A stretch of DNA of 64,000 bases from a virus (lineage: Duplodnaviria; Heunggongvirae; Uroviricota; Caudoviricetes), in the IMG/VR virus record IMGVR_UViG_3300009154_000029. One strand, 5' to 3'. A program made the translations under genes and the position numbers. Each line of letters opens with the position of its first letter. Within the stretch, counting starts at the first letter, position 1. Below the pieces are notes generated by a model. The model did no database searches. It worked only from the letters and a program-made list of their open reading frames with translations, and was not told where the DNA came from. Below are positions 10,172-63,157 of this stretch, one piece after another.

Positions 10172-10630
10172 GTGATTAAGAGATTTAGTGATTTTATTAA
10201 AGAAAGCATAGACAGTTTTGAAAATGAGATATTTTCTGCGTATAACGGAAGGTATCTATTTGACGTTACTAAGGCTTATCAATTTGCTAAGGATAATCCA
10301 GATAAAGCTAGGATTGAAACATATCCAAGTTTTTATCTTAGCCAGTACTCGCATCCAGATTTTTCACTGGTTGATCCTAAAAAGATTTCTAAGATCAGAA
10401 AAGAAATGGATTACGATAAACCACTTGGGCTTTTAGTTAGATTCAAGAATCCTGAAGATCCTAGAACGGAAGGTGAATGGGTTCTTATTGATGGCAACCA
10501 TAGAACAAGAATAGCGGTAGAAGAAAATATGCCAGGCAAACTGATGGTTATAAAAGATCCCAATGATGTTGAGACCTTTATGAAATTTGATCCCGAAATA
10601 CCCCACGAGCTTTTTCCAGAAGATTACTAA
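10172..10630 (+). CDS. ParB-like nuclease domain protein (CTS-like N-terminus MIKRFSDFIKE)
   Basis: LIDGNHRTRIA resembles the ParB/Srx DGxHR motif; N-terminus fits the recurrent motif. Confidence 0.4.
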   Translation: MIKRFSDFIKESIDSFENEIFSAYNGRYLFDVTKAYQFAKDNPDKARIETYPSFYLSQYSHPDFSLVDPKKISKIRKEMDYDKPLGLLVRFKNPEDPRTEGEWVLIDGNHRTRIAVEENMPGKLMVIKDPNDVETFMKFDPEIPHELFPEDY

Positions 10631-10842
10631 TAAGTGTTTCTGTCAGGAAATAGAGGATCTTGTTTTATCTCCAGATCTTTTTTGTTTTGTAGATAATTTA
10701 CAGAAGCTCTTCCGATATCTCCCAGTAGACCTGAGGTGTCATTAGGTCTTTTCATCTCTTTAACTATCTCCGGGGTTAATCCAGGATTTAATTTCTCAAG
10801 CCTTTTGGCTATTTGATCTAAATACTCTTTACTTGGTGTCAT
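10627..10842 (-). CDS. hypothetical protein
   Basis: ORF track; fills gap on minus strand upstream of 10850 gene. Confidence 0.3.
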   Translation of the reverse strand: MTPSKEYLDQIAKRLEKLNPGLTPEIVKEMKRPNDTSGLLGDIGRASVNYLQNKKDLEIKQDPLFPDRNTY

Positions 10843-10849
10843 ATTAAGA

Positions 10850-11611
10850 TTACATTGTTACTAATATGATGGGTCCTAAGTCCTGCGTAATTGAGCCAAC
10901 ATATTTAGTATAATTTTTTCTAATATAAGCTTGGCTGATCGTCCCGTCTGTGTATATTGAATTTGGGCATTTCATAGAATTCAAAAAGAATTCTGACAGC
11001 TCATAAAAAGATACTGGACCTTTTGAAATGACAAAACATGGAAGTCCGTCTTTGTCTACACCAATACCACCCCTATTTGTCTTATTCTTGGAATCCTTAT
11101 GTGCTTCGAAAATTGAATTTATCTTTCCATCTAAAGTGAGGATTGGTCCGTTTTGTATTGCAAATTTGAAACTTTTATCTCCAAAGTTAAATTCAGATGT
11201 TCCAACTATTCCCCATTTATCCCCACCACCATAAAAAACCCCATTTCTCTCACCCGAATTTTCGTCCAAGTGCATTCCAAAATTATCAGTCTCGCTACTA
11301 TTTTTAGAAGCTATGTCTTTACCGTAAAATCTATAATATCCTGTGTTGCCACCACCAGGTTCAAAGAGACATGCGTTCATAGCAAAATCTATAGCAAATG
11401 GTTCAAGTTTACCTTTTACTGGAAAGTCTGTTTTAATTGAATCAACACCTCCCATATCTTCCAGAAGGGATTCTAATGGACTAGATGAAATCTTATATTC
11501 AGACTTACCCATTGTATCATTTCTGATAATAACCTCTTGACCTTTTTTAACCTTGTAGTAATAGAATTTGCTATCCTGTCCAAATTCTTCAAAGAGCTTA
11601 AGATATTTCAT
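10850..11611 (-). CDS. phosphodiester glycosidase family (DUF2233) protein; likely start MKYLKLFEEF
   Basis: RGGIGVDKDG...DGTISQAYI resembles the DUF2233 C-terminal block; internal Met (minus-strand start 11611) gives a CTS-like N-terminus, alternative start 11653. Confidence 0.45.
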   Translation of the reverse strand: MKYLKLFEEFGQDSKFYYYKVKKGQEVIIRNDTMGKSEYKISSSPLESLLEDMGGVDSIKTDFPVKGKLEPFAIDFAMNACLFEPGGGNTGYYRFYGKDIASKNSSETDNFGMHLDENSGERNGVFYGGGDKWGIVGTSEFNFGDKSFKFAIQNGPILTLDGKINSIFEAHKDSKNKTNRGGIGVDKDGLPCFVISKGPVSFYELSEFFLNSMKCPNSIYTDGTISQAYIRKNYTKYVGSITQDLGPIILVTM

Positions 11612-11677
11612 AGATCGTAATTCGTTTCTTTTATATATCCAGTCCGAAATCATTCAGAGTTTTATGATATAATTTTT

Positions 11678-12103
11678 ATGGAGTATAAGAAATTTCAAAA
11701 AATGGTTGATCTGCTTAAGACCCACGAAAAAAAAGTTCATCAAGCCTACGATCTAAAAATAGATATGATAGACTTTTTTGACGATCTACAAAATGTCATA
11801 AGTATTCTTCTAGAGGAATCATACGGGAAGGAGGGTCTGGATTGGTTTGACTGGTTTAGATTCGAGTCTGACTATGGCAGAAAAAAGTGGGGTGGGGTTC
11901 CTGTTTATGAAGCGAGAGAAGACGGGAAAATTGTTGAGATAAAAGGAAGGGATTCTAAGTACGGTGCATATGACGAGAATGGAAATCCAATATGCTACTC
12001 TGTGAAATCAACCTGGGAATTTTTAGAATCAAATCACGGTAAAAATAAAAAAGATGCCAAGAAAAAAGAACCAAAATCAGGGAATCGAAAAAGAGGAAGT
12101 TAG
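11678..12103 (+). CDS. hypothetical protein
   Basis: ORF track. Confidence 0.4.
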   Translation: MEYKKFQKMVDLLKTHEKKVHQAYDLKIDMIDFFDDLQNVISILLEESYGKEGLDWFDWFRFESDYGRKKWGGVPVYEAREDGKIVEIKGRDSKYGAYDENGNPICYSVKSTWEFLESNHGKNKKDAKKKEPKSGNRKRGS

Positions 12104-12116
12104 ATACCAGATAGAG

Positions 12117-18265: not shown

Positions 18266-18907
18266 TTACATTTTACTTTTGATAAACTCTTTTCCTTTTT
18301 GTTTGATAAACTCTTTTCCTTTTTGAATTAGCTTACCTACTGCTTGAAATTTTCCCATTCCTAGTTTTTGTAAACCACCAAACGTCTTTTTGTATGATCC
18401 GGCGTCTAATTTTCCCCTGTTATTAGCAGCAGTCAATTGCATAAATCTCATAGATATCTTAGGAAGAAGATCTGAATTTTTCTTACCTTTAAATCTATCT
18501 CCAAGACCTGCACCACTAATAGGCTTCTGCAAAATAGCTCTTGCTGCATTGTCGTCTTTAGCAGATAATATCATATTAGCTAAAGCTCCACAGTATTTGT
18601 TTAGAGCAACTTGTTCTGCAGCAGCTGCAGGATTTTTCTTTTTCATCATCGCAGCCTTCTTCCAAAGTTTTTTGTCTTCGTTCATTACTTCTAAATCACT
18701 GTAGTAATCGAAATAATCTTCAGCCTCAGCTAATTCTTCGTCGTATTCGAATTCATCTTCGTATCCGAATTCTTCATCTAATTCGTCAGAAAAGTCACCA
18801 TCAAACTCGTCATAATTGTCAAATTCTTGGTCTAGTTCCTGATCTAGTTCGAAATTTTCTTCTTCGTTGATAAACTCGTCGAAGTTTCTGATAATTTGTT
18901 TGTTCAT
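18266..18907 (-). CDS. acidic/basic bipartite protein, paralog A (MNKQIIRNFDEFINEEENFELD)
   Basis: CTS-like N-terminus, D/E/F-rich low-complexity region, Lys-rich C-terminus with KGKEFIK tandem repeat. Confidence 0.5.
   Translation of the reverse strand: MNKQIIRNFDEFINEEENFELDQELDQEFDNYDEFDGDFSDELDEEFGYEDEFEYDEELAEAEDYFDYYSDLEVMNEDKKLWKKAAMMKKKNPAAAAEQVALNKYCGALANMILSAKDDNAARAILQKPISGAGLGDRFKGKKNSDLLPKISMRFMQLTAANNRGKLDAGSYKKTFGGLQKLGMGKFQAVGKLIQKGKEFIKQKGKEFIKSKM
18281..18325. repeat. 24-nt tandem repeat (about 1.9 copies) encoding KGKEFIK x2
   Basis: gataaactcttttcctttttgttt repeated directly. Confidence 0.6.
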
Positions 18908-18936: not shown

Positions 18937-19497
18937 TTATTTCTTTCCAGTAACTCCTGCTGTATGTAAATCCATTAGATTTTTCATTACCTTTTTGAAA
19001 GCTGCTTTATCCATCTTTCCTGGATTTGTTATTGAAACCAATTTTAAAAAATCAATAGCAATACTTGGGATAAAGTCACGATTTCTTAATCCCTTCTTAT
19101 ATCCTATATTACCCGGCATAGGACCAGACAAAACAGAATTCATCTTTGCTGGATTTGCCAGGGTCATAATCAATTTAGGGGCTAAAGTAGCTTTATATTT
19201 AAATTTATCCATTTTATGAGGATCTCCTTTGCGAGATAAGTCTCCTTTAGCTGGTACACCTTTAGTTGTTGGCGTAGCTGCTACTGGTTTAGTAACGTCT
19301 TCATATAGATCATCTGATTCATCTTCGAAATCGAATTCTTCGTCTAATTCGTCTTCTTCTTCGAATTCTTCATCATATCCAAACTCTTCATCCAACTCCA
19401 TATCCAATTCGTCAAGGATATCAAGTTCCTGATCTATTTCGAAATTTTCTTCTTCGTTAAGAAACTCATCAAAGTTTCTGATAATTTGTTTGTTCAT
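18937..19497 (-). CDS. acidic/basic bipartite protein, paralog B (MNKQIIRNFDEFLNEEENFEID)
   Basis: first ~80 nt nearly identical to paralog A; same architecture. Confidence 0.5.
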   Translation of the reverse strand: MNKQIIRNFDEFLNEEENFEIDQELDILDELDMELDEEFGYDEEFEEEDELDEEFDFEDESDDLYEDVTKPVAATPTTKGVPAKGDLSRKGDPHKMDKFKYKATLAPKLIMTLANPAKMNSVLSGPMPGNIGYKKGLRNRDFIPSIAIDFLKLVSITNPGKMDKAAFKKVMKNLMDLHTAGVTGKK

Positions 19498-23270: not shown

Positions 23271-23504
23271 ATGAGAAATCTAAAATCTTACGAGGAACAG
23301 CTAAACGAAAGAAGAAGACAAGATGTTTGTGCTGGATGTGGAAAGTCAATCGAGGATCCAGAGAAAGAGTGTTCTAGATGTGGGACATTTCCACATAAGG
23401 CATATCACGAGAGAGCAGCTTCTAAAACTCTTGGCATAGCTAAATGGATTCAAAATTCCCCAGTTATGCAACCTAATCAGAAATTGAGCGGAGCTGAAAA
23501 TTAA
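23271..23504 (+). CDS. small zinc-ribbon protein (CxxC...CxxC), CTS-like N-terminus MRNLKSYEEQLNE
   Basis: CAGCGKS and CSRCG pairs. Confidence 0.4.
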   Translation: MRNLKSYEEQLNERRRQDVCAGCGKSIEDPEKECSRCGTFPHKAYHERAASKTLGIAKWIQNSPVMQPNQKLSGAEN

Positions 23505-26589: not shown

Positions 26590-26794
26590 TAATAGAGACA
26601 AAAGAAAAGATTATAAAATTTCATTAGACGTTGGATCTAGATATCTAATAGTCGATAAAGTATATGAGATTATTGAAGTTACTAATCAGCACACTTACGC
26701 AGTAAGGGTTAGTCCTGAAGGTGAGTGTTACGGTAGAGCCATCACTCTTGGATCTTTAAGAAATAAAAAAGTGGAGAAGGTATCTTTATTATGA
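26582..26794 (+). CDS. hypothetical protein
   Basis: ORF track. Confidence 0.3.
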   Translation: MSNNRDKRKDYKISLDVGSRYLIVDKVYEIIEVTNQHTYAVRVSPEGECYGRAITLGSLRNKKVEKVSLL

Positions 26795-27583
26795 ATCTGA
26801 CCCGTGAAGTGTAGCAGTAAGCTTATCTATTAATGTTTCTCCAAATTTACTTAGCATATTTGCTGGTCCGGTTTCCCCAGTAAGTCTGTTCACATAAACC
26901 CCCTGAGATGTTGCATTTAAAAGATTACTTAGCTTTGCTCTCTCATCTTTAGTATTTGCATTAGGAGTAGTATTAACCACTGGTTTTATGTTTGAAGCAT
27001 ATTCTGAGCTGCATGAAGCGTGAATGTGATTATAGTGATTCCCAGCCTCATTCTGTTTGCCCATCTTTGAATCATCATATCTCCAAATAATTGTTCTAGA
27101 AGAACCGCTTTCCCCCTTTATAATATTATTCGGGTATTTTTTAATAAGATCAGGATCTTCGGTCATAAGGGAATATCCCATAGAAACTAAAGCATCAACT
27201 AATCTATTTCCAGCTTCTACAAATTTAGGATTGGGATTTTTATTATTTCTATCGGCACCATTTGATCCTTCTAGTGAAGCAAAAGGAACGCTTTCGTCTC
27301 CTATCCTAGCCAGATCAACAGCTAATCCCTGATTATGACGGCTGTAATCACTATGAGATGGATGATCAGTGTCTGCAGCAGTAACCATAACATGAACTTT
27401 AGCTTCCCTTGCTGCAGTTTCAATATCGTCTAATAAAGCCTTATTAACCTTATCTGTGCCAGGGACACTACCCATTTTTAGGTTAGTGTACGATGTTCCT
27501 TTTAGATAATCGAGAGGAACTTTATTTATTTCGTTCAGCTCGTTTTCTGCTATAAAATCGTTGAATAACTTGATTCTTTTCAT
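26789..27583 (-). CDS. M15-family zinc peptidase (VanY/L-Ala-D-Glu peptidase type) with CTS-like N-terminus MKRIKLFNDFIAE
   Basis: SRHNQGLAVD = SxHxxGxAxD zinc-binding block, downstream HYNHIH; N-terminus nearly identical in pattern to T4 CTS (..EFIAE). Confidence 0.6.
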   Translation of the reverse strand: MKRIKLFNDFIAENELNEINKVPLDYLKGTSYTNLKMGSVPGTDKVNKALLDDIETAAREAKVHVMVTAADTDHPSHSDYSRHNQGLAVDLARIGDESVPFASLEGSNGADRNNKNPNPKFVEAGNRLVDALVSMGYSLMTEDPDLIKKYPNNIIKGESGSSRTIIWRYDDSKMGKQNEAGNHYNHIHASCSSEYASNIKPVVNTTPNANTKDERAKLSNLLNATSQGVYVNRLTGETGPANMLSKFGETLIDKLTATLHGSDS

Positions 27584-29843: not shown

Positions 29844-30680
29844 TTGAAAAGGATTTCAACTTTTAATAATTTTCTAAACGAATCTGAAATGGGAACGGAG
29901 CCATTTAAGATCGACGATACTACCTTAAATAAGCTAAAGGAAGACTCTAATTTTTTAAGAAATGCAGCTATTAAAGGAAATATCTCCTCGCTTTTTACCC
30001 TGCATAAAACATACCCAAAAAGAATTCTAGAGATTTACAATTCTTCCGATGGATTTGGAATGACCATAAAGGTTAATGAAATTAACAATTTGATAACCTC
30101 ACTTGATGCTGGGTATTATTATATAACACCTGATGTTTTCTCAGGAAGCTCCATAACTTATCTATATTTCATTAAAGATGATAAACTGGAATCGGGAGAG
30201 TTTAAGGTGGGAAACATTGGTAAGCATCACGATCTATACGACGAGAATATGCTGGTTACTAGTTTAGGTTACGAAAATTATCAGGGCCTCGTTAAAGCTT
30301 TAGATTCTTCAATTAAAGGCGTAGTTGATACCTTTTCAAATATTAGAGTTTTTGATTTTGGTGACTCTAAGATACCCTACAAGCTTTCGTCAGAGGTTAA
30401 GACGAAAATAAAACAGATTTATAAAGAGTGTATTAAAGACTATTTTAATGCAGGCGAGCTCGATCCTGAAATATCCTCCCTGAAAGACATAATAGCGGAC
30501 ATATTCAAGAAAAGACAGAATCTTATTAGAGACTATGGATTAGAAGGACTACCTGATGATTTAATGACTAGGGTCATAAGAAGCTTGGTTGACGATGAGG
30601 AGAAGGAGGTTCTAGTTAAAATTGAATCGCTTCTAAAATTTAGCAAAGCTAAAGAAAACATATTTAAGCTATATCGTTAA
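29844..30680 (+). CDS. hypothetical protein, CTS-like N-terminus MKRISTFNNFLNE
   Basis: ORF track; motif. Confidence 0.45.
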   Translation: MKRISTFNNFLNESEMGTEPFKIDDTTLNKLKEDSNFLRNAAIKGNISSLFTLHKTYPKRILEIYNSSDGFGMTIKVNEINNLITSLDAGYYYITPDVFSGSSITYLYFIKDDKLESGEFKVGNIGKHHDLYDENMLVTSLGYENYQGLVKALDSSIKGVVDTFSNIRVFDFGDSKIPYKLSSEVKTKIKQIYKECIKDYFNAGELDPEISSLKDIIADIFKKRQNLIRDYGLEGLPDDLMTRVIRSLVDDEEKEVLVKIESLLKFSKAKENIFKLYR

Positions 30681-30749: not shown

Positions 30750-31259
30750 TTATCCATCTAATCCAATATCATCTTTACCCATCCCAAGATATCCGCCAAG
30801 TTTATTGAAATAAGATGTTCTGGTAATATCAGGCTTTATCATCTTAGTCAGATCAATTTTCTGAAGGGACAATTGCTGTACCACACCTCCAACTAAATCA
30901 GGAATAGCTGACACCATAGCTTTAGCTAAATTAGTTCTTTGTTGGATTAGCTTGTCTTTAAAAGATGGGTCTATGCCAGGTAGGGAAGAAATAATACCAG
31001 CAACTCTCTGAGCTAAATATGATGATGCCGAAGATGGATCTTCTTTGACCATTCTTACTATTGTGCTAGCTTGTTGTTGATCCCCATTAATAACTCCTTG
31101 GGCCATTAATTCAGCAATAACTTGCATAGCTTCATTCTTTACTCCAGACATTGAAAATTCAACTTTGCCAAAAACTGGAGGTGCAACTTCGATACCTGCT
31201 GCTCCTGCTCCCGGTGCATTTGCATCCTCAAAAAGCTCAAAATCTATAAGATTTTCCAT
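30750..31259 (-). CDS. hypothetical protein (MENLIDFELFEDA)
   Basis: ORF track. Confidence 0.4.
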   Translation of the reverse strand: MENLIDFELFEDANAPGAGAAGIEVAPPVFGKVEFSMSGVKNEAMQVIAELMAQGVINGDQQQASTIVRMVKEDPSSASSYLAQRVAGIISSLPGIDPSFKDKLIQQRTNLAKAMVSAIPDLVGGVVQQLSLQKIDLTKMIKPDITRTSYFNKLGGYLGMGKDDIGLDG

Positions 31260-31275
31260 ATTAATATATTTTATT

Positions 31276-31545
31276 TTATTCTGCGTGTGGTTTTACTAGT
31301 CCTGCATATCCAGGTTGTCCCATGCATTCTTTTATATATCCCATGCACTCGTTAACATACCCCTCGTAGGTGTGAGAATCGTCTGGGTCATTGTGATAGT
31401 CTTCCGCTTCCTTGCAAAGCATAGCTTCACAAAGGGATTTTATTTCATTTTTTGCATCCTCACTCACTGCACCACATTCTTCTAAATGTGATCCGTAATT
31501 CTCCATTAATCCGGAGAAACTCTCGTATGATTTTAAATTTGTCAT
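31276..31545 (-). CDS. hypothetical Cys-rich protein (MTNLKSYESF)
   Basis: ORF track. Confidence 0.35.
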   Translation of the reverse strand: MTNLKSYESFSGLMENYGSHLEECGAVSEDAKNEIKSLCEAMLCKEAEDYHNDPDDSHTYEGYVNECMGYIKECMGQPGYAGLVKPHAE

Positions 31546-43056: not shown

Positions 43057-44109
43057 CTATTTTAAATATTGAGCAATTATTTTCATCGTTTCCCTGTCTT
43101 TAGCGTCTATAGCTTTAGAAAGTTCATCGTTCAGTTCTCTCTGAGTCATCTTAGAGTAATCAATCGGCTCTGGTTCTTCCTGCTTTTTAGGTAAGTTAAG
43201 ACCTAAAGATTTTCTTTTCTCCATCTTTTTATTATAATCTTCCATCTGTCTCTCGTATTCCGCCATCTGTCTTTCATATTCTGCAAGATCCCTTAAATAT
43301 TTAGCTCTCTTTTGTAGCTTATCTATGATCTTGTCTATAAGAGAATCAACTTTAACTCTTGCCTCTGGTGTTTTAGATAATATACCCTTCATAAGATCTA
43401 AAAACTCTTCAGTTGGCATCGTTTTCTCGTCGATCATATACTTCCAAAGTTCCTCTCTAACATTTTTAAACATGTCAGTTTTAGGATTCTCGTTAACAAA
43501 ATCTCTAAGATCCGCTGCTATTTCTGGACCATATCTCCAATCATCAGGTTCATCGGATAAACCAAATTGAGATTCAATTGCTTTAGCAAGTGCAGGATCT
43601 TTAGGAACAGATCCCATTGATATAACTCTCCAGATCCCCTTAACCGCTTCATGTATAAGCATACTAAAATCTACACCTCTAGCTCTTATTATCGGACTTT
43701 GACTAGGGGTTGTTTGTGTCGTTGCTTTCTGTTTAGCAAAAGCAGTATCGATCATTCTTCTAATATCATTCCCGCTAGAGAATTTAATGTCCAGCTTTAT
43801 CTTATAGTGATCTATTAAAGGTTTATACAAATCAGTAATCACCTTGGTTGCCAATTCTTCCAATGCTCTTTCATATCCTACTGATAGAGCTTGTGATCTG
43901 TACATTTCGTTCATTAAAGGACCAGCCGCTCCTTGAAGAGCCCTTGGGCTTCCTTCAGTTTCTCCTGCTATTCCCATTCTTTCTTTTGCTCTAGCGGTAA
44001 CGTCTGCAATATAATCACTCTCTCCCGGTAGTTTACCTGGAATAGAGGAGAGGTCTCTAGTTTTCATTGCCTCTAGGAAAAGTTCAAATTTTTTAAGTCT
44101 ATCTGTCAT
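43057..44109 (-). CDS. hypothetical protein, CTS-like N-terminus MTDRLKKFELFLE
   Basis: ORF track; tandem AEYERQM repeat. Confidence 0.45.
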   Translation of the reverse strand: MTDRLKKFELFLEAMKTRDLSSIPGKLPGESDYIADVTARAKERMGIAGETEGSPRALQGAAGPLMNEMYRSQALSVGYERALEELATKVITDLYKPLIDHYKIKLDIKFSSGNDIRRMIDTAFAKQKATTQTTPSQSPIIRARGVDFSMLIHEAVKGIWRVISMGSVPKDPALAKAIESQFGLSDEPDDWRYGPEIAADLRDFVNENPKTDMFKNVREELWKYMIDEKTMPTEEFLDLMKGILSKTPEARVKVDSLIDKIIDKLQKRAKYLRDLAEYERQMAEYERQMEDYNKKMEKRKSLGLNLPKKQEEPEPIDYSKMTQRELNDELSKAIDAKDRETMKIIAQYLK

Positions 44110-47425: not shown

Positions 47426-47973
47426 ATCTGATAGAAAATTTTAAAATTTTAGGCTCCTATAATATAGATTCAATTCTTTCCAAAATTCAATGTTTGGATC
47501 AGGATTGGGATGAATACACATTCAGACAGGAGAGATATAAGGATCATAGTGAAACTAAAACAATTCCTCTTATATGGTCTGAGAAGTTTAATTCAATCGA
47601 AAAGAGAAAGTGGTATAATATCTTTGAGAATGAACTTGAAGAGCTAGAATTTATTTTTAATAGCTCACTCGAAGAAGGTGTAATAATAAGTGCTATTCTT
47701 ATTAATCTACCGAAGGGTAAATCTATAAAAAGGCATATTGATGCAAACCCAATAGGTGAAAGATTCAATCAATGTCACAGAATTCATATCCCTATAACAA
47801 CAAACGAAAACTGTATCTTTGAAATTAACGGAGAAGAGAAATCATTAAAGCCAGGAGAAATTTGGGAAATAAGTAATGTCTTTAAACCACATAGTGTAAG
47901 AAACGAAGGCGATTGCGACAGAATCCACCTACTAATTGACTGGATGCCATTAGAGATTTTTAAGAATCTCTGA
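47404..47973 (+). CDS. cupin / Asp-Asn beta-hydroxylase-like 2OG-Fe(II) oxygenase candidate
   Basis: HIDANP ... HRIHIP ... HSVRNEGDCDRIHLLIDW His/Asp spacing. Confidence 0.4.
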   Translation: MGFSFTMNLIENFKILGSYNIDSILSKIQCLDQDWDEYTFRQERYKDHSETKTIPLIWSEKFNSIEKRKWYNIFENELEELEFIFNSSLEEGVIISAILINLPKGKSIKRHIDANPIGERFNQCHRIHIPITTNENCIFEINGEEKSLKPGEIWEISNVFKPHSVRNEGDCDRIHLLIDWMPLEIFKNL

Positions 47974-48342
47974 TAAATTATTAGATGTTCCTGAATTTCC
48001 TTCCGAAGTGTAGCTAAAAACTCCATTTTTCTTAGTGATTACTAAATCACCAGATTCTGTTTTTAAGCAAACAGTGTTACAAAGATCACCTCTTCCAGTA
48101 AAAAAATCAGCAACAGATTCTGCAAGTCCTCTGCCATCTGGAGTTCCAAAATAGCTTGCGTCTTTACTTGTGCATTTAGAATCAACCTCACCCATACCAT
48201 TTGAAAGAGATTGTTTTCTGATTGAATTTATTTCATCTCTAGTGAACCAATTTATTGAGCCATTACCTTGATTAAATTCAAAACTTTGTGATTCTTCTAA
48301 AAGATCAGAAACAAACTCTTCAAATAATTTAAGACGCTTCAT
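47950..48342 (-). CDS. hypothetical protein, CTS-like N-terminus MKRLKLFEEFVSDLLEE
   Basis: ORF track; motif. Confidence 0.45.
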   Translation of the reverse strand: MKRLKLFEEFVSDLLEESQSFEFNQGNGSINWFTRDEINSIRKQSLSNGMGEVDSKCTSKDASYFGTPDGRGLAESVADFFTGRGDLCNTVCLKTESGDLVITKKNGVFSYTSEGNSGTSNNLSEILKNL

Positions 48343-49584: not shown

Positions 49585-50532
49585 ATGAAAAGAATTAAGA
49601 GGTTTGAGTTATTCTTAGAGAACGAAGAAAAGAAGACTGGCTATAAGCTTTTTTATTTTAAAACAGAAGCAAATGAAGACTATGGTTATCCAATCCTTTC
49701 TGAAGTCGACGAGGACGATTTATATAGGAGGAATGGTTCATGGAAATCCCCAAATAGCATTGATGAGCTTCATGACGAGTATGTTAACGCAAACAATGGA
49801 CCAATCCATGGCTCAGATGGGTGGGAAAGTCTCAATTATAGCATACAGAAGTATCAAGATGCAAAAGACCAAAATGACGAGGAAGAGATGGCAGAATGTC
49901 TTGAAAAAATTGAAGATTGTCTTTTAGATTTTGGACTTGACGATGCTGATGCAGAAAGAGTTGCGAATGAGCCAGATTATTATGATGAAATGACTACAAA
50001 GTATATTAATGACACATTTCAACAATGGAAAAATGCATATTACCCATTCGACTCATCTTGGAATTTTCTGTGCATAGATCTAAATGGTGGGGGAGAATAC
50101 TCTAATAGATGGGATGACAACTCTATAGATGGAAATCTTTGGACTACTATCGCTTCATTGATTGGCTCTGCCGTTATCCCATTAGCTTATTCGAATGATA
50201 GTGATTATTTTCATATATTAACTTCGGATAACGAATTCATAAAAACAAAATTCACAAAGTCAAATAGTCCAGAAAAGATTGCATCAGGATTTATAGCTGA
50301 TCCAGAATCTCATAAAATGGTAAGTGATATGATCTCAAAAATGGAAAATACAGGGAAAAAGAATTTTCTACCAAAAGCACCTTTAGATATACTTGATGCT
50401 TATTTTAAGGAGAATCCCTTAGATCTGTATATGATAGCTGACCATCCACAACTTAAGGATGAGGTTCTAAAAAGAACAGGCCTAAAGGACTTTTCAAGAT
50501 TAGGACAAACTATAGATAAAGGAATACTTTAA
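49585..50532 (+). CDS. acidic protein with family C-terminal tail; start at MKRIKRFELFLE
   Basis: internal ATG 49585 gives CTS-like N-terminus; tail YFKENPLDLYMIADHPQLKDEVLKRTGLKDFSRLGQTIDKGIL. Confidence 0.5.
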   Translation: MKRIKRFELFLENEEKKTGYKLFYFKTEANEDYGYPILSEVDEDDLYRRNGSWKSPNSIDELHDEYVNANNGPIHGSDGWESLNYSIQKYQDAKDQNDEEEMAECLEKIEDCLLDFGLDDADAERVANEPDYYDEMTTKYINDTFQQWKNAYYPFDSSWNFLCIDLNGGGEYSNRWDDNSIDGNLWTTIASLIGSAVIPLAYSNDSDYFHILTSDNEFIKTKFTKSNSPEKIASGFIADPESHKMVSDMISKMENTGKKNFLPKAPLDILDAYFKENPLDLYMIADHPQLKDEVLKRTGLKDFSRLGQTIDKGIL

Positions 50533-52265: not shown

Positions 52266-53234
52266 ATGAGAAACTTAAAAACATATAAATTATTCGAGAA
52301 ATCACAAGAGATCACACCAGAGCAGAGGGAGTGGCTGGACACCTGCTCAACGGCAGGGAATAGACATTCAAAATGGTCAATAAATCCACTAGGAATGATT
52401 GATGTTGATCATGATTTTTATGCACATGGATCTAATGGAACAAGGTTTTCATCCAATCTAAGAAAGAATCTCACAGGATTTCTTGGATTAAAATTCGGAA
52501 AGGTTTGGGGGGGTTTCTTTGTTAATGACACTGCAATTACTACATTGGAGGGAAGTCCATCTGATGTTGGAGGATCCTTCCACTGTGAGCAGAACAGTTT
52601 GGAATCACTTGAAGGAGCTCCTGAAAGGGTGGGAAGAAATTTCGTTTGTAGTGGGAATACAACACTAAAATCTTTAAAAGGAGCACCTCGGGAGATTGGA
52701 TATGAACACACTTACGACGAGAATGATCTATATCCATCAGTATTTGATTGCTCACTTTGTGATTTAAAGAATCTAGAGGGAAGTCCAGAGTATATACCTG
52801 GTGATTTCAAATGCGAGGGAAATCCACTAGTATCTCTTAAGGGAGCACCTAGAGTTATAGAAAGAAACTTTTATACCAGAACCGGATTAGGTGAACTTAA
52901 ATCACTATACGGAGCTCCTGAAAAAGTAGGGGGTAGCTTTATATGTAATGACTTCACTTTGTATAATGGAACATGGGGAACCTCAGAATCATACACAAAG
53001 CTCTTTTTAGGAGTTGAAGACGATGACTGTAAAATATACGCTAGTTCAGAGAGAATGAAATTGTTGATGACACCTTATGTTACTGACGATTTAGTCGACT
53101 CATTCTTTAAGGAGAATCCACTAGAGATTGGTCTTCTAGACGGTTATCCAGAAATTAAAGCTGAAGTTCTCAAAAGAACAGGACTAAGAGACATGTCATC
53201 ATTAGGACAAGCTCTAAGAAAAAAAATGATATAA
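52266..53234 (+). CDS. LRR-like repeat protein, conserved-C-tail family (MRNLKTYKLFEK)
   Basis: repeats plus tail FFKENPLEIGLLDGYPEIKAEVLKRTGLRDMSSLGQALRKKMI. Confidence 0.6.
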   Translation: MRNLKTYKLFEKSQEITPEQREWLDTCSTAGNRHSKWSINPLGMIDVDHDFYAHGSNGTRFSSNLRKNLTGFLGLKFGKVWGGFFVNDTAITTLEGSPSDVGGSFHCEQNSLESLEGAPERVGRNFVCSGNTTLKSLKGAPREIGYEHTYDENDLYPSVFDCSLCDLKNLEGSPEYIPGDFKCEGNPLVSLKGAPRVIERNFYTRTGLGELKSLYGAPEKVGGSFICNDFTLYNGTWGTSESYTKLFLGVEDDDCKIYASSERMKLLMTPYVTDDLVDSFFKENPLEIGLLDGYPEIKAEVLKRTGLRDMSSLGQALRKKMI

Positions 53235-54610
53235 TGGGAAAACACATTTTAAGCGCAGCAGAATTCTTTCTGAATGAGGGGACAATCAACGATCCATCAG
53301 ATTGGCCAGATAACTGGAAAGACATGCCTGAATGGACACAACTCCAGGAGCTTGGATTTACTGACGCCACCACGCCGCAAATGGCCAAGAACGGTAGCAT
53401 TCTTCTCATGAACTTTGCCATTCCACACTATCCAGGAGGTATAACACTTCAACAATCAGGGTACATTAGAAATAAGTTGGCATCTTCAGGATTCATTAAA
53501 AATTATCGTGATAGCTTTACACTTAAGCAAATGTTTGACTACCTTATAGAGAAATTCACTAAGCTCTCAAAAAAAGGAATAGAAAGAAACCCAGAGCATG
53601 GTGATCTTCCAGATCCAACAGTTGCATTCTTAAATAAGGTGGTTAATGGATCTTGGAGTTTTAACCAGGAAACTCAAAGAATTGACGTTGAAGGTAATGT
53701 TAACATGTCCATGATCAAATCTATACCCGAGGGGATCAGATTCGGAAACGTTTTGGTTCATTTCGTTTGTAATAATATGGGACTTACCAATTTAGATATT
53801 GCTCCGATATATGTTGGTGGATATTTTGACTGCTCGAGTAATAAACTCACCTCGCTAGAGGGAGGACCTGAAAGAGTGGACGGAAATTATGACTGCTCAC
53901 TCAATAAGCTCACAACATTAAGGGGTGCTCCAGAATATTGTGCACACTCATTTGTCTGCAGTTCTAATAAATTAGAAACGCTAGAGGGATGTCCGAAAGA
54001 AGTGGGTAGGAGATTTGATTGTTCAAAAAATCCTCTGAAATCCCTTATTGGCTCTCCTGAGATGAATCCTGAAAGCCAATTTTTTGCAGATCGAACCCTC
54101 ATTAACAATCTAAGTGGAATGCCTGAAGTTGGTGAGGTGACAATTGAGGCATGTAAAAATCTCAAATCTTTAAGGGATTTACCCCAAAGTGTTTATTCCA
54201 TATATCAGGGGGGTATGTCAATCTTTATTAATAAAGGAGGGAATAGATCAGGTGGCAATTTTTCAAGATCATATATTCTTGAAGCAATAGCACAGCTTAT
54301 TTCTTATAGGAATGAAGCTATCACCAGTGATCGTTATTCTAATACTCAGATCCCAGATATAGAAAGAGGCGGATACACCATACACACTAATATATACAAT
54401 TGGAATTCTACACCAAAGGAAAGGGAAAGGGGATTTACTCTTTTTATGACACTTCTAGACAATGACTTCTTAGATCAATACTTCAAAGAAAATCCTATGG
54501 ATATCAATATATTAAATGCATTGCCTGATGTTAAAGCCGGGGTATTACAAAGAACTGGTATAAAAGACTACTCCAAACTAGCAGCAGCTCTAAGAAGCGG
54601 TATGGTTTAA
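53234..54610 (+). CDS. LRR-like repeat protein, conserved-C-tail family (paralog of 36589..37731)
   Basis: shared N-domain, repeats CSSNKLTSLEGGPERVDGNYD etc., tail YFKENPMDINILNALPDVKAGVLQRTGIKDYSKLAAALRSGMV. Confidence 0.6.
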   Translation: MGKHILSAAEFFLNEGTINDPSDWPDNWKDMPEWTQLQELGFTDATTPQMAKNGSILLMNFAIPHYPGGITLQQSGYIRNKLASSGFIKNYRDSFTLKQMFDYLIEKFTKLSKKGIERNPEHGDLPDPTVAFLNKVVNGSWSFNQETQRIDVEGNVNMSMIKSIPEGIRFGNVLVHFVCNNMGLTNLDIAPIYVGGYFDCSSNKLTSLEGGPERVDGNYDCSLNKLTTLRGAPEYCAHSFVCSSNKLETLEGCPKEVGRRFDCSKNPLKSLIGSPEMNPESQFFADRTLINNLSGMPEVGEVTIEACKNLKSLRDLPQSVYSIYQGGMSIFINKGGNRSGGNFSRSYILEAIAQLISYRNEAITSDRYSNTQIPDIERGGYTIHTNIYNWNSTPKERERGFTLFMTLLDNDFLDQYFKENPMDINILNALPDVKAGVLQRTGIKDYSKLAAALRSGMV

Positions 54611-54643: not shown

Positions 54644-55222
54644 ATGAAGCATATCCATGACTACCATATATTCGAGAGCACTACCAGCAAGAATCTTGTC
54701 TCCCCCTCACTCTCACCGATTACAACCTACTTCGAGACCGCACAGGGATCCAAGTATCTTCTCTCACAGAAGGGAGAGACCAAGAGGTGGAAAAGCTCAC
54801 ACGCCAACACAGGAGGGGAAGATCAAGGGCTAAAGTCCTGGTATCCCAACTCCATGTTTGTACCTGAGGATAGTCTAGATGCTATGATGGCTTACGAGCA
54901 CTTATTAGATAAAGGATACAGAATATCACTCTCCAAGACCCAGAACGGCAAGCAGGTCTGGATCATTCTTAAAGATGGTGCGTGGACACCAGCTCTCTAC
55001 TCCGACGCATTCCCAACATATAGCAGACTGAACCCAGATAAAGCATCTAAGCCACTAGCTTTCACTAGCTACTCAACGCCATCTCTAGGCATGATGGCTG
55101 TGGAGTACAAACAGGAATCTAATGGACTGATCAGAAGCTTCCATCCTGGTTCTCCAGTCTCCAAGGTGCTACCTATAGATCAGGCTGATCCTAAGGATCT
55201 GTTCTACTTTGGCATTAAATAA
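54644..55222 (+). CDS. hypothetical protein in GC-richer island (MKHIHDYHIFE)
   Basis: ORF track; composition shift. Confidence 0.45.
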   Translation: MKHIHDYHIFESTTSKNLVSPSLSPITTYFETAQGSKYLLSQKGETKRWKSSHANTGGEDQGLKSWYPNSMFVPEDSLDAMMAYEHLLDKGYRISLSKTQNGKQVWIILKDGAWTPALYSDAFPTYSRLNPDKASKPLAFTSYSTPSLGMMAVEYKQESNGLIRSFHPGSPVSKVLPIDQADPKDLFYFGIK

Positions 55223-58859: not shown

Positions 58860-60086
58860 ATGAGAAGAATTTTAAATTTTTATGATTTCACATCAGATTC
58901 ATCAATGAATGAATCTGACAAACCGTTGGAGGGGAAACCGAAAGAAGGAAAGCCTTCATTCGAAATCCCCAAGATTAATCAGAAGATGCCTAGCGATTAT
59001 TTGGGCAAAGGAGGGGGATTGGAGGGAGGAAAATACCCCGGAGGTAGAAAAACATATGCCAGACTAAGGACGAAAGCTGTTACTGATCTCCTAAAATTAA
59101 AAAAAGATATGGAGGAAGAGGGTTTTATGGAAGACTGTGAAGAATCATTAAAGGGGGCTAAGGAGGAGTTAAAAAAATTGTTTGCTAGCCCGATTACTGC
59201 CAGAAAATTTAGAGACAACTACGAGAAATCAAAGAATACAGCAATTGCTAATAGCCAAAAATCAATTTTTAAAAAGTATTTAAATGCGATCGAAAATCTT
59301 GAAATTGCCTACTATACAAATAGCGGTCTTTGGCAGGAAGGCATATCCCCATTAGTCAGAAAGAAAATTGAAAAAATATATCCCACAGGATCTAAATTCT
59401 ATAAGGAATACCCCGATGCTATTGCTTTTGTTCTTCCTGAAGATCCGGAGCTTAATAGAATTATATTCGTGAATTGTGTTAAGGGATTAGAAAAAAGCAT
59501 GTTTGACGAAATGAAGTTCGTTATGATCCATGAGATTCAACATTTACTGTTTAAGATCTGTCCAATAAATCCAGAGGCCCAAATTGGAAAGACTTTTATT
59601 GGCCCAGGAGAACCAAAATCAAGTCCGTTAGCATCCTTGTTTGGAGGAGGGGGTCTTTTTAAAACTGCTAAGGATTTATATTTTAAATTATCGGGTAAAA
59701 AATCAGAGGCGGAGATGGAATCAGCTTTAGCTCGAATAAAGAGAATATCAAAAGAAACTAGTAGCGACACCGAGGCAAAGAACATATATTTTTATTGGAC
59801 TAAACTATGCATGGAAAAGGGTAATGGCCAATACATAGATGAGATAACTGAAAATGCATCTCGAATTATTGCTATGAGATCAGTTCTAGGGGTTTCCCCT
59901 GGGAAGGACATAAGCAAAAAAATGATCCTGCCCTATATCCTTAGAAAGGAAAGCGATACAAACATATCCTGGCTATTGCTGGCTTGGGCTAAAAACGGAT
60001 TTAAAGATTTGGATCAATTTTTAAATGGAATAAACGCACTGGCTAAATCGGACCAAGCCTCTCAATTTGGCGGAGATTACGCGTAA
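58860..60086 (+). CDS. HExxH zinc metalloprotease-like protein, CTS-like N-terminus MRRILNFYDFTSD
   Basis: HEIQH motif (MIHEIQHLLF) around residue 224. Confidence 0.45.
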   Translation: MRRILNFYDFTSDSSMNESDKPLEGKPKEGKPSFEIPKINQKMPSDYLGKGGGLEGGKYPGGRKTYARLRTKAVTDLLKLKKDMEEEGFMEDCEESLKGAKEELKKLFASPITARKFRDNYEKSKNTAIANSQKSIFKKYLNAIENLEIAYYTNSGLWQEGISPLVRKKIEKIYPTGSKFYKEYPDAIAFVLPEDPELNRIIFVNCVKGLEKSMFDEMKFVMIHEIQHLLFKICPINPEAQIGKTFIGPGEPKSSPLASLFGGGGLFKTAKDLYFKLSGKKSEAEMESALARIKRISKETSSDTEAKNIYFYWTKLCMEKGNGQYIDEITENASRIIAMRSVLGVSPGKDISKKMILPYILRKESDTNISWLLLAWAKNGFKDLDQFLNGINALAKSDQASQFGGDYA

Positions 60087-60654: not shown

Positions 60655-61041
60655 ATGAAACACATAGACACATACGAGATGCTAGAGGCTAAAGGCCCAT
60701 GCTGGACAGGCTACAAGCAGATTGGCACCAAGATCAAGAAAGGCAGAAAGGTGCCGAGATGCGTGCCGATCAAGGAGGGAGAGATCACACCACCACCAGG
60801 CTGGGAGATGCAAGACTCATCCCTCTATAAGAGATACACGTTCAAGGACTTCAAAGTTGCCATGGCATTTATGAACGAGGTCGCAGAGGTGTGCAACCAA
60901 ATGAATCACCATCCCAAGTGGACCAACGTTTATAAGACTGTCCAGTGCTGGCTTAGAACCCATGACGCAGGAGATGTGCCTACAGAGAAGGATCACGAGC
61001 TTGCTCTAGCTATGGACTCTATAGCCTCCAGGCTCAGCTAG
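60655..61041 (+). CDS. pterin-4a-carbinolamine dehydratase (PCD/DCoH)-like protein with N-terminal extension
   Basis: EVCNQMNHHPKWTNVYKTV...RTHDAG matches the [E]xxxHHPxxxxxY...HD PCD signature. Confidence 0.6.
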   Translation: MKHIDTYEMLEAKGPCWTGYKQIGTKIKKGRKVPRCVPIKEGEITPPPGWEMQDSSLYKRYTFKDFKVAMAFMNEVAEVCNQMNHHPKWTNVYKTVQCWLRTHDAGDVPTEKDHELALAMDSIASRLS

Positions 61042-61093: not shown

Positions 61094-61099
61094 TGTCCC

Positions 61100-61272
61100 C
61101 TCATATAGTATAGTAGTAAGGTAGTATGCGAAGGGGAGCCTACCCCTACCTAGTGCCAGCACCTAGTCCAGCATATATCATGAGGAGAAGCTTGGATAGG
61201 CCTCCCCACATAGTATGATGGTAACATAGTATGCAAGGGGAAGACCGGAACCCCTAGTGGACACGCGTGGGA
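61100..61272. repeat. two ~65-bp imperfect direct repeats (~105-bp spacing), each with a GGGG..CCCC hairpin, in GC-rich non-coding DNA
   Basis: CATATAGTAT.GTAAGGTAGTATGCGAAGGGGAGCCTACCCCTACCTAGTG vs CACATAGTATGATGGTAACATAGTATGCAAGGGGAAGACCGGAACCCCTAGTGG. Confidence 0.55.
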
Positions 61273-61622
61273 GGTGCTAGGAAGAGCCTAGATGAGGGAC
61301 GGCTAAGTGGGTGTATATGGGGAATCTGAGGGAGCTCTGGCCCCTGATGGAAACCCCTCTGCAGGACCGAGCCACCACCCAGGGTGGGTACACGGTGATT
61401 TCTGTGATGCCGCGTTTGCCTAGTTTCCCAGCCCGGGCCGAGTCCACCGCCGACGGTTCGCCGGGACGTCTGGGAAATCCTGGAATTCTGTGTGATTTTG
61501 TGGAGATTTGTGTGAATCCCCGGTCGGGCTCACCCGGTCCCACAGATTCCCCCGCTAATCTCGCCCCGCCAGGCTGCCTTAGATCCCTATAGGAGCTCGC
61601 CTCGCCCCGGATATATAGGTGT

Positions 61623-62249
61623 ATGAAGCATATTAAACCCCTAAACGAAAACTGGGATGACGACGACCCGGATTACGACATTCCCGATGACGACGAGCCC
61701 ACCGAGCCCTTTAAGAGAAGATTGGATTTACCTAAGTGGGAGAAGCTCTTTCACGTTCTCTATATAGGTGACCACTACGCCCTAGTCTATATGGGCACAG
61801 ACCAGAAGGACCTTTGGATAGTTGACTTGGACTGGGGGGAAATCCGAGAGGATATGGAGAATTTGGGATTCTGGCTTGTCTTTGATGCCGATCCCACTAC
61901 TTGGGAGGAGAACCAAGGTGGTCTGGAGGATTTTCTCACTCTGGCCTGGCAGGGTAAGCTGGGAATTAAGAAGGAGGATCTCTTCGAGGCTGGGGATGAT
62001 CCCGAGGTTTCGGCTGAGCGATTCATTGACAATCAGGCTTTCTCCAAGAAGGCCGAGGTTTGCCGAATCAGCACGCCGGAGTTTGCGGAGGTGGTGATAG
62101 GAGAGCTGCTGAAAGCTCATGGCCGGGCTCATGAGAGACACATAGTCACTGCCAAGAGGTATCGGAACATTCTTCCGGCGGATTTCAAGGGTGTAGGTAA
62201 CAAGAGGATGGCGAGCTATATCGCAGCCGTGTGGCCGAGCGCAACTTAG
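61623..62249 (+). CDS. hypothetical acidic protein in GC-rich island (MKHIKPLNENWDDDDPD)
   Basis: ORF track. Confidence 0.45.
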   Translation: MKHIKPLNENWDDDDPDYDIPDDDEPTEPFKRRLDLPKWEKLFHVLYIGDHYALVYMGTDQKDLWIVDLDWGEIREDMENLGFWLVFDADPTTWEENQGGLEDFLTLAWQGKLGIKKEDLFEAGDDPEVSAERFIDNQAFSKKAEVCRISTPEFAEVVIGELLKAHGRAHERHIVTAKRYRNILPADFKGVGNKRMASYIAAVWPSAT

Positions 62250-62353
62250 GCGCAGGTTGGAGTCTACTCTCCCGGCTCCTTTTGAGAGCCACGCCCGTGA
62301 CCGGTGTCCCCTAGTGCCACAATGTAAATGTATGGCATTTCCCCGAGAAGAAA

Positions 62354-62473
62354 AAAATATTCCGGTGGTATTTTGATATATAAGACAGAATAAAAAAAAT
62401 GAGTATGAACAAAATATTCCGGTGGTATTTTGATATATAAGACAGAATAAAAAAAATGAGTATGAACAAAATA
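62354..62473. repeat. perfect 57-bp tandem duplication (2.1 copies) spanning the leader and first 12 nt of the downstream gene
   Basis: aaaatattccggtggtattttgatatataagacagaataaaaaaaatgagtatgaac at 62354 and again at 62411. Confidence 0.8.
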
Positions 62474-63157
62474 ACCAGCTACGAGGATTTCCTTAATGAG
62501 GATAATAAACCAAAAGCTAAAACTAAAACTAAGGTTATAATCCTCCCTATAAGCAGTAGTCTATCCAATGGAGAATCTGCCCCGGCAAATAAAATCATCA
62601 CTCCTAAGTTCTGGAGCATCAAACAAGCAAAGCCCGAGCATAAACAAATAGCACTTGATATTCTTAATGCACTAAGCGGGTTTACCGAGAATGAAGAAGC
62701 TGTGATAAAGACGTTTAGAGAGGAAATAAAGACACAAGAGGATTTCTTTGGTGTTCAACAGGTTTGGCAATATTGGTTTCCAAGCATACAGAATTTGAGA
62801 AATGTGAGGTACAAAACTATGGCTGAAGCTGATAAGATGGGTAAAACCAGGGAAACCAGAAAGGGAATTGGCTTCAGAAACGCCTTAGGCTACTATCTTA
62901 ACGATAAGCAACTTGCCACATTGAATGCTGTTCTCCCTGCTGGAATTATAAAGATCGCAAAAACTAAAGGGTCAGGTGGAGAAATTTCCACATCAAGGAC
63001 AAGAACAATTGACTTTCCCGATATGACAAAAGAGGCTCTTATAGATATTCTATTAAGAAGCTTATCTATAATGCAAAAGGATCTTACATATACCGGAGAG
63101 CAAGTTTGCGCCCATATAGACTCTGTTTGTAAAAATTACAGAGAAGCTAAAAAGTAA
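62462..63157 (+). CDS. hypothetical protein, CTS-like N-terminus MNKITSYEDFLNE (alternative start 62456)
   Basis: ORF track; motif. Confidence 0.45.
   Translation: MNKITSYEDFLNEDNKPKAKTKTKVIILPISSSLSNGESAPANKIITPKFWSIKQAKPEHKQIALDILNALSGFTENEEAVIKTFREEIKTQEDFFGVQQVWQYWFPSIQNLRNVRYKTMAEADKMGKTRETRKGIGFRNALGYYLNDKQLATLNAVLPAGIIKIAKTKGSGGEISTSRTRTIDFPDMTKEALIDILLRSLSIMQKDLTYTGEQVCAHIDSVCKNYREAKK

Follow-up and report, generated by a model that had tools for sequence, protein, structure and literature searches.

A shared N-terminal peptide and an upstream 8-mer

The stretch of DNA analyzed here, referred to as the window, is 64 kb of the IMG/VR virus record IMGVR_UViG_3300009154_000029 (Caudoviricetes), with ~100 genes, a GC content of 35% and no tRNA genes. 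Several freshwater-lake metagenomes carry the same sequence, on contigs of up to at least 88 kb. The genes at 1–10 kb encode nucleotide metabolism and similar functions, and beyond 10 kb the window is mostly without annotation. Megablast of window positions 1–25 kb against GenBank phages gave no match, and for a few window proteins the best cultured relative is Flavobacterium phage immuto (60% for ThyA, 61% for the endolysin). The subject of this analysis is a 13-residue N-terminal peptide, here called the tag (consensus MK[HR][IL]K[LT][FY]E[ED]F[ILV]NE; tag peptide MKHIKLFEEFINE), which begins at the initiator Met of many genes beyond 10 kb and of none at 1–10 kb, together with an 8-mer, [GA]ATATATA, found upstream of most of the genes that carry it. 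Genes are named below by their first coordinate.

An earlier sequence-only reading of this DNA had proposed that more than 25 unrelated proteins share a bacteriophage T4-like N-terminal signal, and all the N-termini that it quoted are present in the window. A non-circular profile was built from 252 tags of other contigs, and with it 21 window N-termini score above the best internal score (6.0 bits; 16,472 residues). About five more genes (30750, 31914, 36589, 53234 and 61623) carry weak tags only, giving a tagged share of 21–26% of the window genes. A loose form of the pattern, M-[KR]-x-[IL]-x-x-[FY]-[EDN]-x-[FY], occurs at 7–9 of 100 gene starts, compared with 0 of 348 internal Met and 2 of 15,295 internal positions, and the motif is specific to N-termini. 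In control sequences, the profile matched 1 of 223 immuto genes and 1 of 1146 genes in 80 immuto-like head loci, and nothing in the regions of PTm1, T4, LR756508, LR756501 and Mel-JY01 that were scanned. The description of the tagged proteins as unrelated is correct for the most part: they fall into ~20 families without mutual BLASTP similarity, the exceptions being the pair 18266/18937 and a family of six that have a ~50-aa C-terminal module in common.

Conservation along the tag was assessed with 267 unique sequences, in which the initiator M is followed by K (81%), H (41%), I (64%) or L, K (62%), L (40%) or T, F (74%) or Y, E (68%), E/D, F (74%), [IVL] (51%), N (31%) and E (49%). The predicted helix is amphipathic (hydrophobic moment 0.41 versus 0.27 for shuffled sequences), and an AlphaFold 2 (AF2) model of the 26789 family has a helix at residues 6–12, a low-confidence linker at 15–18 and, beyond it, a LAS-type peptidase domain modeled with confidence. 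In proteins with a known domain the tag is an addition to the N-terminus, with the phrog_5162 profile beginning at residue 13, Pterin_4a at 47 and NAGPA at 78. The full pattern originally put forward, which included F-[IL]-x-E at its end, occurs literally in only two genes; an [ILV]-x-E ending is present in ~8–12 of the 26 window tags, and 8 genes have the strict form aromatic-x-x-aromatic-[ILV]-x-E. Among the 267 unique tags, [ILVM]-x-E stands at positions 11–13 in 41% and within positions 10–24 in 69%.

The shared N-terminus is conserved as amino acids and is a protein signal, not a DNA element, because codon identity at tag positions with the same residue (0.509) is close to the 0.485 expected from codon usage and the spacer between the 8-mer and the ATG varies in length and sequence. 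A Sec, Tat or lipoprotein signal peptide was also considered and rejected, as the tags are charged and amphipathic without a hydrophobic stretch; true signal peptides in the window, for example those of 55875 and 63371, look different.

The 8-mer [GA]ATATATA lies 12–42 nt upstream of most tagged genes, and several copies end only 5 nt before the ATG, leaving very short leaders. Its form GATATATA occurs 26 times in the window versus 4.1 expected, 19 of these within 50 nt upstream of a start. The 8-mer precedes 16 of the 21 tagged genes versus 12 of the 79 untagged genes (counts 16/12/5/67; odds ratio 17.9, p = 2e-7), and the remaining tagged genes without an 8-mer of their own sit within operons. 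Untagged genes with the 8-mer include a thioredoxin, a ClpB/ClpA-like ATPase and the true endolysin homologue, in which the promoter-like element is present and the tag absent.

Tagged genes of the window

Scores given here refer to the external 252-tag profile unless a seed profile is stated. The gene at 26789..27583 on the minus strand encodes a 264-aa protein with the tag MKRIKLFNDFIAE (25.0 bits), preceded by promoter-like 8-mers at 27608–27615 and 27639–27646(−). From ~residue 30 it has a LAS-superfamily (MepA/VanY/M15-like) Zn-peptidase domain, with fold matches to MepA, the Hedgehog N-terminal domain and VanXY. The gene 10850..11611(−) encodes 253 aa starting MKYLKLFEEFGQD (19.9 bits; GATATATA at 11632–11639(−)) and has a Pfam NAGPA (phosphodiester glycosidase) domain at residues 78–231. 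Its true start is 11611 and not 11653, since the promoter falls inside the longer open reading frame (ORF). Cargo labels from that reading fared unevenly: the LAS/M15-like peptidase stood, whereas the ParB-like, papain-like and HExxH labels had no profile support in Pfam, PHROGs, NCBIfam or PDB, and the only other domains verified were NAGPA and the pterin dehydratase described below. Three more tagged genes lie in the flanks of the window, two of them with cell-wall-enzyme domains (PG_binding_1/YkuD-like and SLT). Three tagged proteins are cell-wall enzymes (LAS peptidase, PG_binding_1/YkuD-like and SLT-like), which would suit delivery with the virion.

The GC-rich island at 60001–62500 (GC 0.47–0.54 versus 0.35 for the backbone; GC at third codon positions, GC3, 0.62–0.65 versus ~0.28 elsewhere) contains tagged genes too, as had been proposed. 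It holds a pterin-4a-carbinolamine dehydratase and an acidic protein, both with an AT-rich tag and promoter. The former, 60655..61041(+), has 128 aa and consists of the tag MKHIDTYEMLEAK (13.2 bits; GATATATA at 60643–60650), a basic linker and a Pfam Pterin_4a domain at residues 47–123. Its first 39 nt have a GC content of 0.38 versus 0.51 for the rest (GC3 0.65). The weakly tagged gene 61623..62249(+) in the same island (208 aa, MKHIKPLNENWDD; 6.8 bits with the seed profile; GATATATA at 61610–61617) likewise has a first 39 nt richer in AT than the remainder. An AT-rich start on GC-rich genes is as expected if the tag was grafted onto imported genes. The body of 54644..55222(+) is moderately GC-rich (GC3 0.51; 192 aa, MKHIHDYHIFEST, 11.1 bits; GATATATA at 54631–54638). 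Beyond the island, 62462..63157(+) (231 aa, MNKITSYEDFLNE, 17.3 bits, start at 62462) has GATATATA at 62432–62439 and at 62375–62382. Its promoter region, at 62311–62469, is apparently duplicated: the two copies, at 62375 and 62432, start 57 nt from each other, and on the other strand a spurious ORF translates into a repeated peptide.

Six genes, 36589–37731(−), 48393–49025, 49585–50532, 50590–52257, 52266–53234 and 53234–54610, encode the same ~48-aa C-terminal module, ...D.YFKENPL..Y.LD..P..K..VLKRTG.KD.S.LG.A..KGM-I/L. Four of them are tagged and two untagged. The tagged members are 36589..37731(−) (380 aa, weak tag MRRIINLSEFPINE), 49585..50532(+) (315 aa, MKRIKRFELFLEN, 12.8 bits; AATATATA at 49553–49560; start at 49585, not 49543), 52266..53234(+) (322 aa, MRNLKTYKLFEKS, 13.8 bits), and 53234..54610(+) (458 aa, weak tag MGKHILSAAEFFLNE). 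The third of these lies in an operon behind 50590, with the promoter at 50557–50564, and its homologues at four IMG/VR loci (L036, L078, L079 and L088) align from residue 1; homologues of 36589 are found on tag-bearing IMG/VR contigs. The repeat-rich middles of this family recur many times, both in huge phages (the 735-kb LR756501 has them at 16 places) and in a Vibrio phage of 196 kb, and the LR756501 locus with the repeat family has no tag. The C-terminal module could be a second, C-terminal address or an anchoring module.

The paralogues 18266..18907(−) (213 aa, MNKQIIRNFDEFINEE, 11.1 bits; AATATATA at 18930–18937(−)) and 18937..19497(−) (186 aa, MNKQIIRNFDEFLNEE, 10.3 bits; GATATATA at 19532–19539(−)) continue from the tag into an extremely acidic tract and then a basic, lysine-rich C-terminal half; the acidic tract resembles the one in T4 core protein gp67. 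At 35271..35960(+) the 229-aa protein (tag MHILEYKRFITE, 9.1 bits; AATATATA at 35259–35266) has a body belonging to phrog_5162, and its homologues in rV5-like phages align only from ~residue 20. Its neighbor 36111..36587(−), within an operon, encodes 158 aa with the tag MKRIKDFNGYLKK (14.8 bits) and an HExxH motif, without a family match. Homologues of this pair also lie side by side in rV5-like coliphages and in related records that were deposited as Campylobacter phages, and there they are without the tag. An HExxH motif is present also in 58860..60086(+) (408 aa, MRRILNFYDFTSD, 12.4 bits; GATATATA at 58837–58844). The gene 47950..48342(−) (130 aa, MKRLKLFEEFVSD, 22.3 bits; GATATATA at 48366–48373(−)) has a 41% identical homologue at another IMG/VR locus (L085), where the tag is present too.

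Other tagged genes with an upstream 8-mer are 10172..10630(+) (152 aa, GTG start, MIKRFSDFIKE, a shortened tag ending I-K-E; 8.0 bits; GATATATA at 10148–10155), 29844..30680(+) (278 aa, TTG start, (M)KRISTFNNFLNE, 21.1 bits; GATATATA at 29815–29822), 31276..31545(−) (89 aa, MTNLKSYESFSGL, 16.0 bits; GATATATA at 31550–31557(−)), 37738..38217(−) (159 aa, MKYISLYESYTAT, 13.5 bits; GATATATA at 38227–38234(−)) and 38275..38946(+) (223 aa, MKHLILFEDFDQM, 17.3 bits; GATATATA at 38246–38253). The gene 23271..23504(+) (77 aa, MRNLKSYEEQLNE, 16.0 bits) has no promoter of its own and follows 22038–23267, 39527..40000(+) (157 aa, MKHIEIYEAFSQS, 13.9 bits) lies within an operon, and 43057..44109(−) (350 aa, MTDRLKKFELFLE, 7.5 bits) is directly 3′ of the ClpB/ClpA-like gene 44116–46404(−), which encodes a double AAA+ protein of 762 aa. 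Weak tags are found at 30750..31259(−) (169 aa, MENLIDFELFEDA, 9.1 bits with the seed profile only; GATATATA at 31333–31340(−), 74 nt upstream) and at 31914..32333(+) (139 aa, MSSILKFSDWVLE, with the aromatic-x-x-aromatic-[ILV]-x-E pattern; GATATATA at 31902–31909).

Three further genes of the window were noted. The gene at 33040–33468(+) encodes a full-length SmpB, the partner of transfer-messenger RNA (tmRNA), above the NCBIfam equivalog cutoff, and no tmRNA gene was found in the window. The gene at 8896–9942 has a 43% homologue at a related head locus (L463, Ga0164296_1000555) discussed below. The 761-aa product of 55875–58160(−) is a parallel beta-helix protein with a signal peptide and a type A sorting domain of the type IX secretion system (T9SS), which suggests that it is exported by the type IX system of the host. 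Given this sorting domain on a phage protein and the similarity of window proteins to those of immuto, the host of the window phage is probably a member of the Bacteroidota.

Head modules of related phages

Head modules were collected from IMG/VR by capsid-protein similarity alone, independently of tag and promoter. In 80 such modules [GA]ATATATA precedes 74 of 74 protease and 61 of 64 portal genes, and the same holds for 54 of 58 protease genes in a second set, made up of 80 loci of larger genomes. Across hundreds of related IMG/VR contigs the 8-mer stands before T4-type portal and prohead-protease genes. We therefore read it as a putative late promoter of the clade, shared by tagged genes and head genes. 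Its sequence is [GA]ATATATA and that of the T4 late promoter, which depends on gp55 and gp33, is TATAAATA, confirmed here before T4 genes 20, 22 and 24. Both are single AT-rich 8-mers that have no −35 element and lie immediately before head genes and single late genes, although lateness in the present case is deduced from gene context. No homologue of gp55 or gp33 was found in the window, where no search aimed at them was made.

Nearly every one of the 80 modules has a gene for a protein of 110–122 aa between portal and protease, the position of gp67/gp68 in T4, and this protein starts MK[IH][IVL]K[TL]FE[ED]F[IVL][ST]E. In the second set more tagged genes follow just after the capsid gene. The head genes themselves are Portal_T4, Peptidase_S77 (the T4 gp21 family) and Gp23, all above Pfam thresholds, and L-I-N-E, the same type of tripeptide as at the end of the tag, is invariant near the start of the clade's capsid proteins. 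A scan of IMG/VR with the combined promoter-plus-tag DNA pattern found at least 120 loci; among the 120 matches listed, 24 contain T4-type head genes, many carry several tagged genes, and many lie on contigs of 125–480 kb. The densest array seen is that of locus L093 (IMGVR_UViG_3300031566_000207, 19.4–34.2 kb), where 16 consecutive small genes start MK[HYN]IKTFE[DQ]F[IV]NE.

Searches of IMG/VR brought up no copy of the window phage. Homologues of window genes are found on tag-bearing IMG/VR contigs of 127–349 kb, and one of these contigs, 3300027770_000025 (348.6 kb), has both a T4-type capsid gene and homologues of the window repeat family. All 12 orthologues of 26789 (39–58% identity) and all 11 of 10850 (41–65%; P0039–P0050) are tagged. 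The linker behind the tag varies among them in length and sequence, and [ILV]-x-E is mostly retained, even where it is displaced by several residues (e.g., MRIKSFHEFENGSEINE and MEKVKSFSEFTIDYNISE). This pattern fits a two-part signal made of a docking helix and a cleavage site. More distant homologues from other lineages are without the tag, including distant peptidase homologues in IMG/VR.

The nearest relative of the tag-lineage capsid protein is that of the uncultured huge phage LR756500.1 (52%), followed at ~37% by Lak phages, Tenacibaculum phage PTm1 and the 635–735-kb Lac Pavin phages. By capsid protein PTm1 is the nearest cultured phage (36%), and it is without the tag. The complete genome of LR756500.1 (462 kb, 671 ORFs) has ~45 tagged N-termini versus 1 internal match, clustered in islands, with 17 of 53 genes tagged in one 50-kb bin. 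With its tag density of 21–26% the window looks like one such “cargo island,” and the phage that it comes from is a large, uncultured one of fresh water. The sequence-only reading had called the repertoire exceptionally large, which is correct relative to T4; a large tagged repertoire is nevertheless a property of the clade and not of the window phage alone.

Immuto was considered as a member of the tag lineage and rejected, as it has a T4-type head yet neither the tag nor GATATATA, and the 80 immuto-like head loci are tag-free. The tag lineage is therefore a different T4-type branch. The immuto head module (L012, 18632–25468) encodes three small proteins with N-termini resembling the T4 capsid-targeting sequence (CTS), MENFDLKKFLVEN, MENNFDIHKWQAKFLKES and ...GKFSKEHFIAEA, T4-like in number and unlike the window tag in sequence. 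At the locus mentioned above, L463 (3949–4323), a 124-aa protein starts MKTYAEFLTE, nearly the T4 CTS, ~4 kb upstream of a T4-type protease. In Vibrio phage VB_VaC_TDDLMA (L029, PP083315.1, 0.9–2.8 kb) several adjacent small genes start MKFKQFLAESDE, MKFKEYLNELSQ or MNFKEYIQLGEA; this cultured phage of 196 kb, with its CTS-like N-termini, could be used as a model for experiments.

A candidate capsid-targeting propeptide

The T4 CTS, MKTYQEFIAE, is a peptide of ~10 residues; no other feature is conserved among the diverse internal proteins, it is enough to bring foreign proteins into the scaffolding core, and gp21 cuts it off (PMC3012670; PMC9958956; PMC5694885; bioRxiv 10.1101/2021.01.19.427310). 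It aligns to tag positions 4–13 (K/K, Y/F, E/E, F/F, I/I, E/E) and scores 7.5 bits with the 252-tag profile, above the best internal window score of 6.0. Because the motif is short, this resemblance is support and not proof. Like the CTS of IPI, IPII and IPIII, the tag is a short N-terminal amphipathic peptide that is the sole feature common to unrelated proteins, ends in [IL]-x-E in part of its copies and appears to be expressed with head genes, and related contigs encode T4-type portal, Peptidase_S77 and Gp23. There are also differences. The window tag is three residues longer in front (M-K-[HR]), and only about half of the window-type tags end in the cleavage motif. T4 has about three CTS proteins, compared with 21–26 in 64 kb here and ~45 in the 462-kb relative. 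T4 cargo consists of small basic proteins, whereas the putative cargo here includes enzymes and the products of recently acquired genes.

We consider it probable that the tag acts as a capsid-targeting propeptide of the T4 type, coupled to a late promoter of its own, and that a clade of large uncultured phages (jumbo and huge phages, probably of Bacteroidota) has expanded this system until each genome encodes tens of cargo proteins. On this reading the [GA]ATATATA promoters of the tagged genes would be active late, at the same time as those of the portal and the prohead protease. The short amphipathic helix at the N-terminus would attach each protein to the scaffolding core while the prohead assembles, and the capsid shell would close around it. 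A gp21-family prohead protease (Peptidase_S77) would cut off those tags that end in [ILV]-x-[ED], and the mature protein would stay in the head and be delivered with the DNA. Any gene gaining the 13-codon tag and the promoter could become cargo, which would explain why unrelated domains, including those of recently acquired GC-rich genes, carry the tag. The proposal of a T4 CTS-like, prohead-addressing propeptide is in this respect strengthened by the promoter shared with head genes, the tagged head-module gene, the Peptidase_S77 of the lineage, the orthologues, the CTS alignment and the AT-rich tags on GC-rich, apparently acquired genes, and it is weakened where the tag ends without [ILV]-x-E.

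Our confidence stays well short of certainty, since docking, cleavage, packaging and ejection of the tagged proteins are inferred, half of the tags are without a canonical site and the head genes of the window phage itself are unseen. The last point is the main gap: no head genes were found in the window or in ~19 kb of its flanks, and a metagenome scan with a capsid-protein alignment recovered no contig overlapping the window, leaving its head module and protease unrecovered. The head of the window phage is probably T4-type, judged from related contigs, and the tag is for this reason linked to head genes only through the lineage. Several other observations count against the propeptide reading. 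With the site at positions 11–13 in only 41% of tags, many may escape cleavage there; the late-promoter assignment rests on position before head genes; and the association of promoter and tag is weaker in LR756500 (odds ratio 3.6). Some cargo, such as pterin-4a-carbinolamine dehydratase, is odd for a packaged protein, no cultured member of the tag clade was found, and ~45 cargo species per virion has a phiKZ-like precedent and none in T4-like phages.

The missing cleavage motifs also bear on a reading in which the tag is a virion or assembly-site address and not a cleaved signal of ejected cargo, either a permanent docking helix (for scaffold, portal or capsid surface) or a co-assembly signal of head accessories. 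About half of the tags are without [ILV]-x-E at the expected place, the tagged head-module protein could itself be a structural core protein, and promoter sharing indicates only late timing. We nonetheless regard an uncleaved address as unlikely, given that orthologues retain [ILV]-x-E even when it is displaced, that the T4 CTS, which the tag resembles, is a cleaved peptide (PMC9958956), and that a variety of enzymes and recently acquired genes are represented in the cargo. A sorting or quality-control signal inside the cell and unrelated to the capsid (a ClpB/ClpA-like recognition helix, a degron timing late proteins or an address for another phage-made compartment) appears improbable, as the archetypal tagged gene lies between portal and protease in the head modules of relatives, the tag is similar to the T4 CTS, and no Clp-type peptidase subunit was found among the window proteins scanned or those with precomputed Pfam matches. 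What speaks for such a signal is that the ClpB/ClpA-like gene 44116–46404(−) has the same promoter (46429–46436(−)) and lies directly upstream of tagged 43057, and that recognition through an N-terminal helix is common.

Tandem arrays of tagged paralogues (L093 with its 16 genes, L031 and L036), the paralogue pairs in the window and the joint travel of promoter and tag would also be produced by a tag that has no address function at all, being a relic of common descent among diverged tandem paralogues or a mobile promoter-plus-start cassette like the T4-type promoter-stem-loop cassettes. A cassette of this kind was tested for and rejected at the DNA level, with no conservation across copies, codons at the usage expectation and unconserved spacers; the tag is moreover fused to unrelated folds (LAS peptidase, NAGPA, Pterin_4a and phrog_5162) and in orthologues is more constrained than the adjoining linker, and we give this explanation rather little weight. 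Still less credible is that the motif acts at the level of mRNA or translation in late genes whose leaders are short. Several promoters end 5 nt before the ATG, and A-rich second and third codons (MK...) generally favor initiation. However, most genes with the same promoter are without the motif, including portal, protease and endolysin (378 with the promoter only versus 53 with both in the 80 head loci), and what is conserved are aromatic and acidic residues at codons 7–13, with synonymous variation free.

A capsid-targeting propeptide also has to be set beside other phages that package proteins. Giant-phage heads of phiKZ, 201phi2-1 and SPN3US contain dozens of inner-body or ejection proteins, some paralogues of which may share identical N-termini, with processing after Glu. 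Their propeptides mostly have 80–160 residues with [S/A/G]-x-E sites and no common short tag, and these phages belong to another lineage. A long propeptide of the phiKZ/SPN3US type was considered for the window proteins and rejected, as conservation here covers 13 aa and domains start by residue 13–47. The Dar system of phage P1 (dependent on DarA and Hdf) is similar in that accessory, host-directed anti-restriction proteins are loaded during assembly and injected; loading there depends on a hierarchy of specific proteins and is not known to involve a shared terminal peptide.

A parallel is found in LR756508.1 (484 kb, T4-type head; L150, 150–200 kb), where more than 15 proteins of the head-module area share a tag that also ends in [VIL]-x-E. 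This tag differs in sequence (MK[LI][ST]E+KLR+[IL][IV][KR]EE[IL]..VL.E; 0 matches with the window-type profile), and no description of it was found in the literature searched; it appears to be the same principle in a sister lineage. LR756508.1 also encodes paralogues of ~250–280 aa starting MRLKEILLE or MKFKELLKE, several of them with a YRG[ST] motif reminiscent of ADP-ribosyltransferases, T4 Alt among them.

Neither the window tag nor the [GA]ATATATA element was found described in the searchable literature. New here are the link to [GA]ATATATA, the tagged head-module gene, the conservation among orthologues and the repertoire of ~45 genes in the 462-kb relative, and [GA]ATATATA is a candidate late-promoter signature for annotating the clade. 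Should the tag function as the T4 CTS does, sequence would suffice to list the proteins, most of them currently “hypothetical,” that uncultured huge phages package and probably inject, and the tag would show how cargo is recruited by adding a tag and a promoter and would provide a second, longer targeting peptide for engineering delivery in phage capsids. It is possible, although we would put the chance somewhat below even, that a clade of uncultured jumbo and huge phages with T4-type heads uses a “plug-and-inject” strategy, in which a 13-codon tag and an 8-base late promoter load any gene and the virion carries tens of enzymes or effectors. The injected proteome of these phages would then be readable directly from sequence, and co-evolution of tag and scaffold would follow from the apparently different address codes used in sister lineages like that of LR756508.

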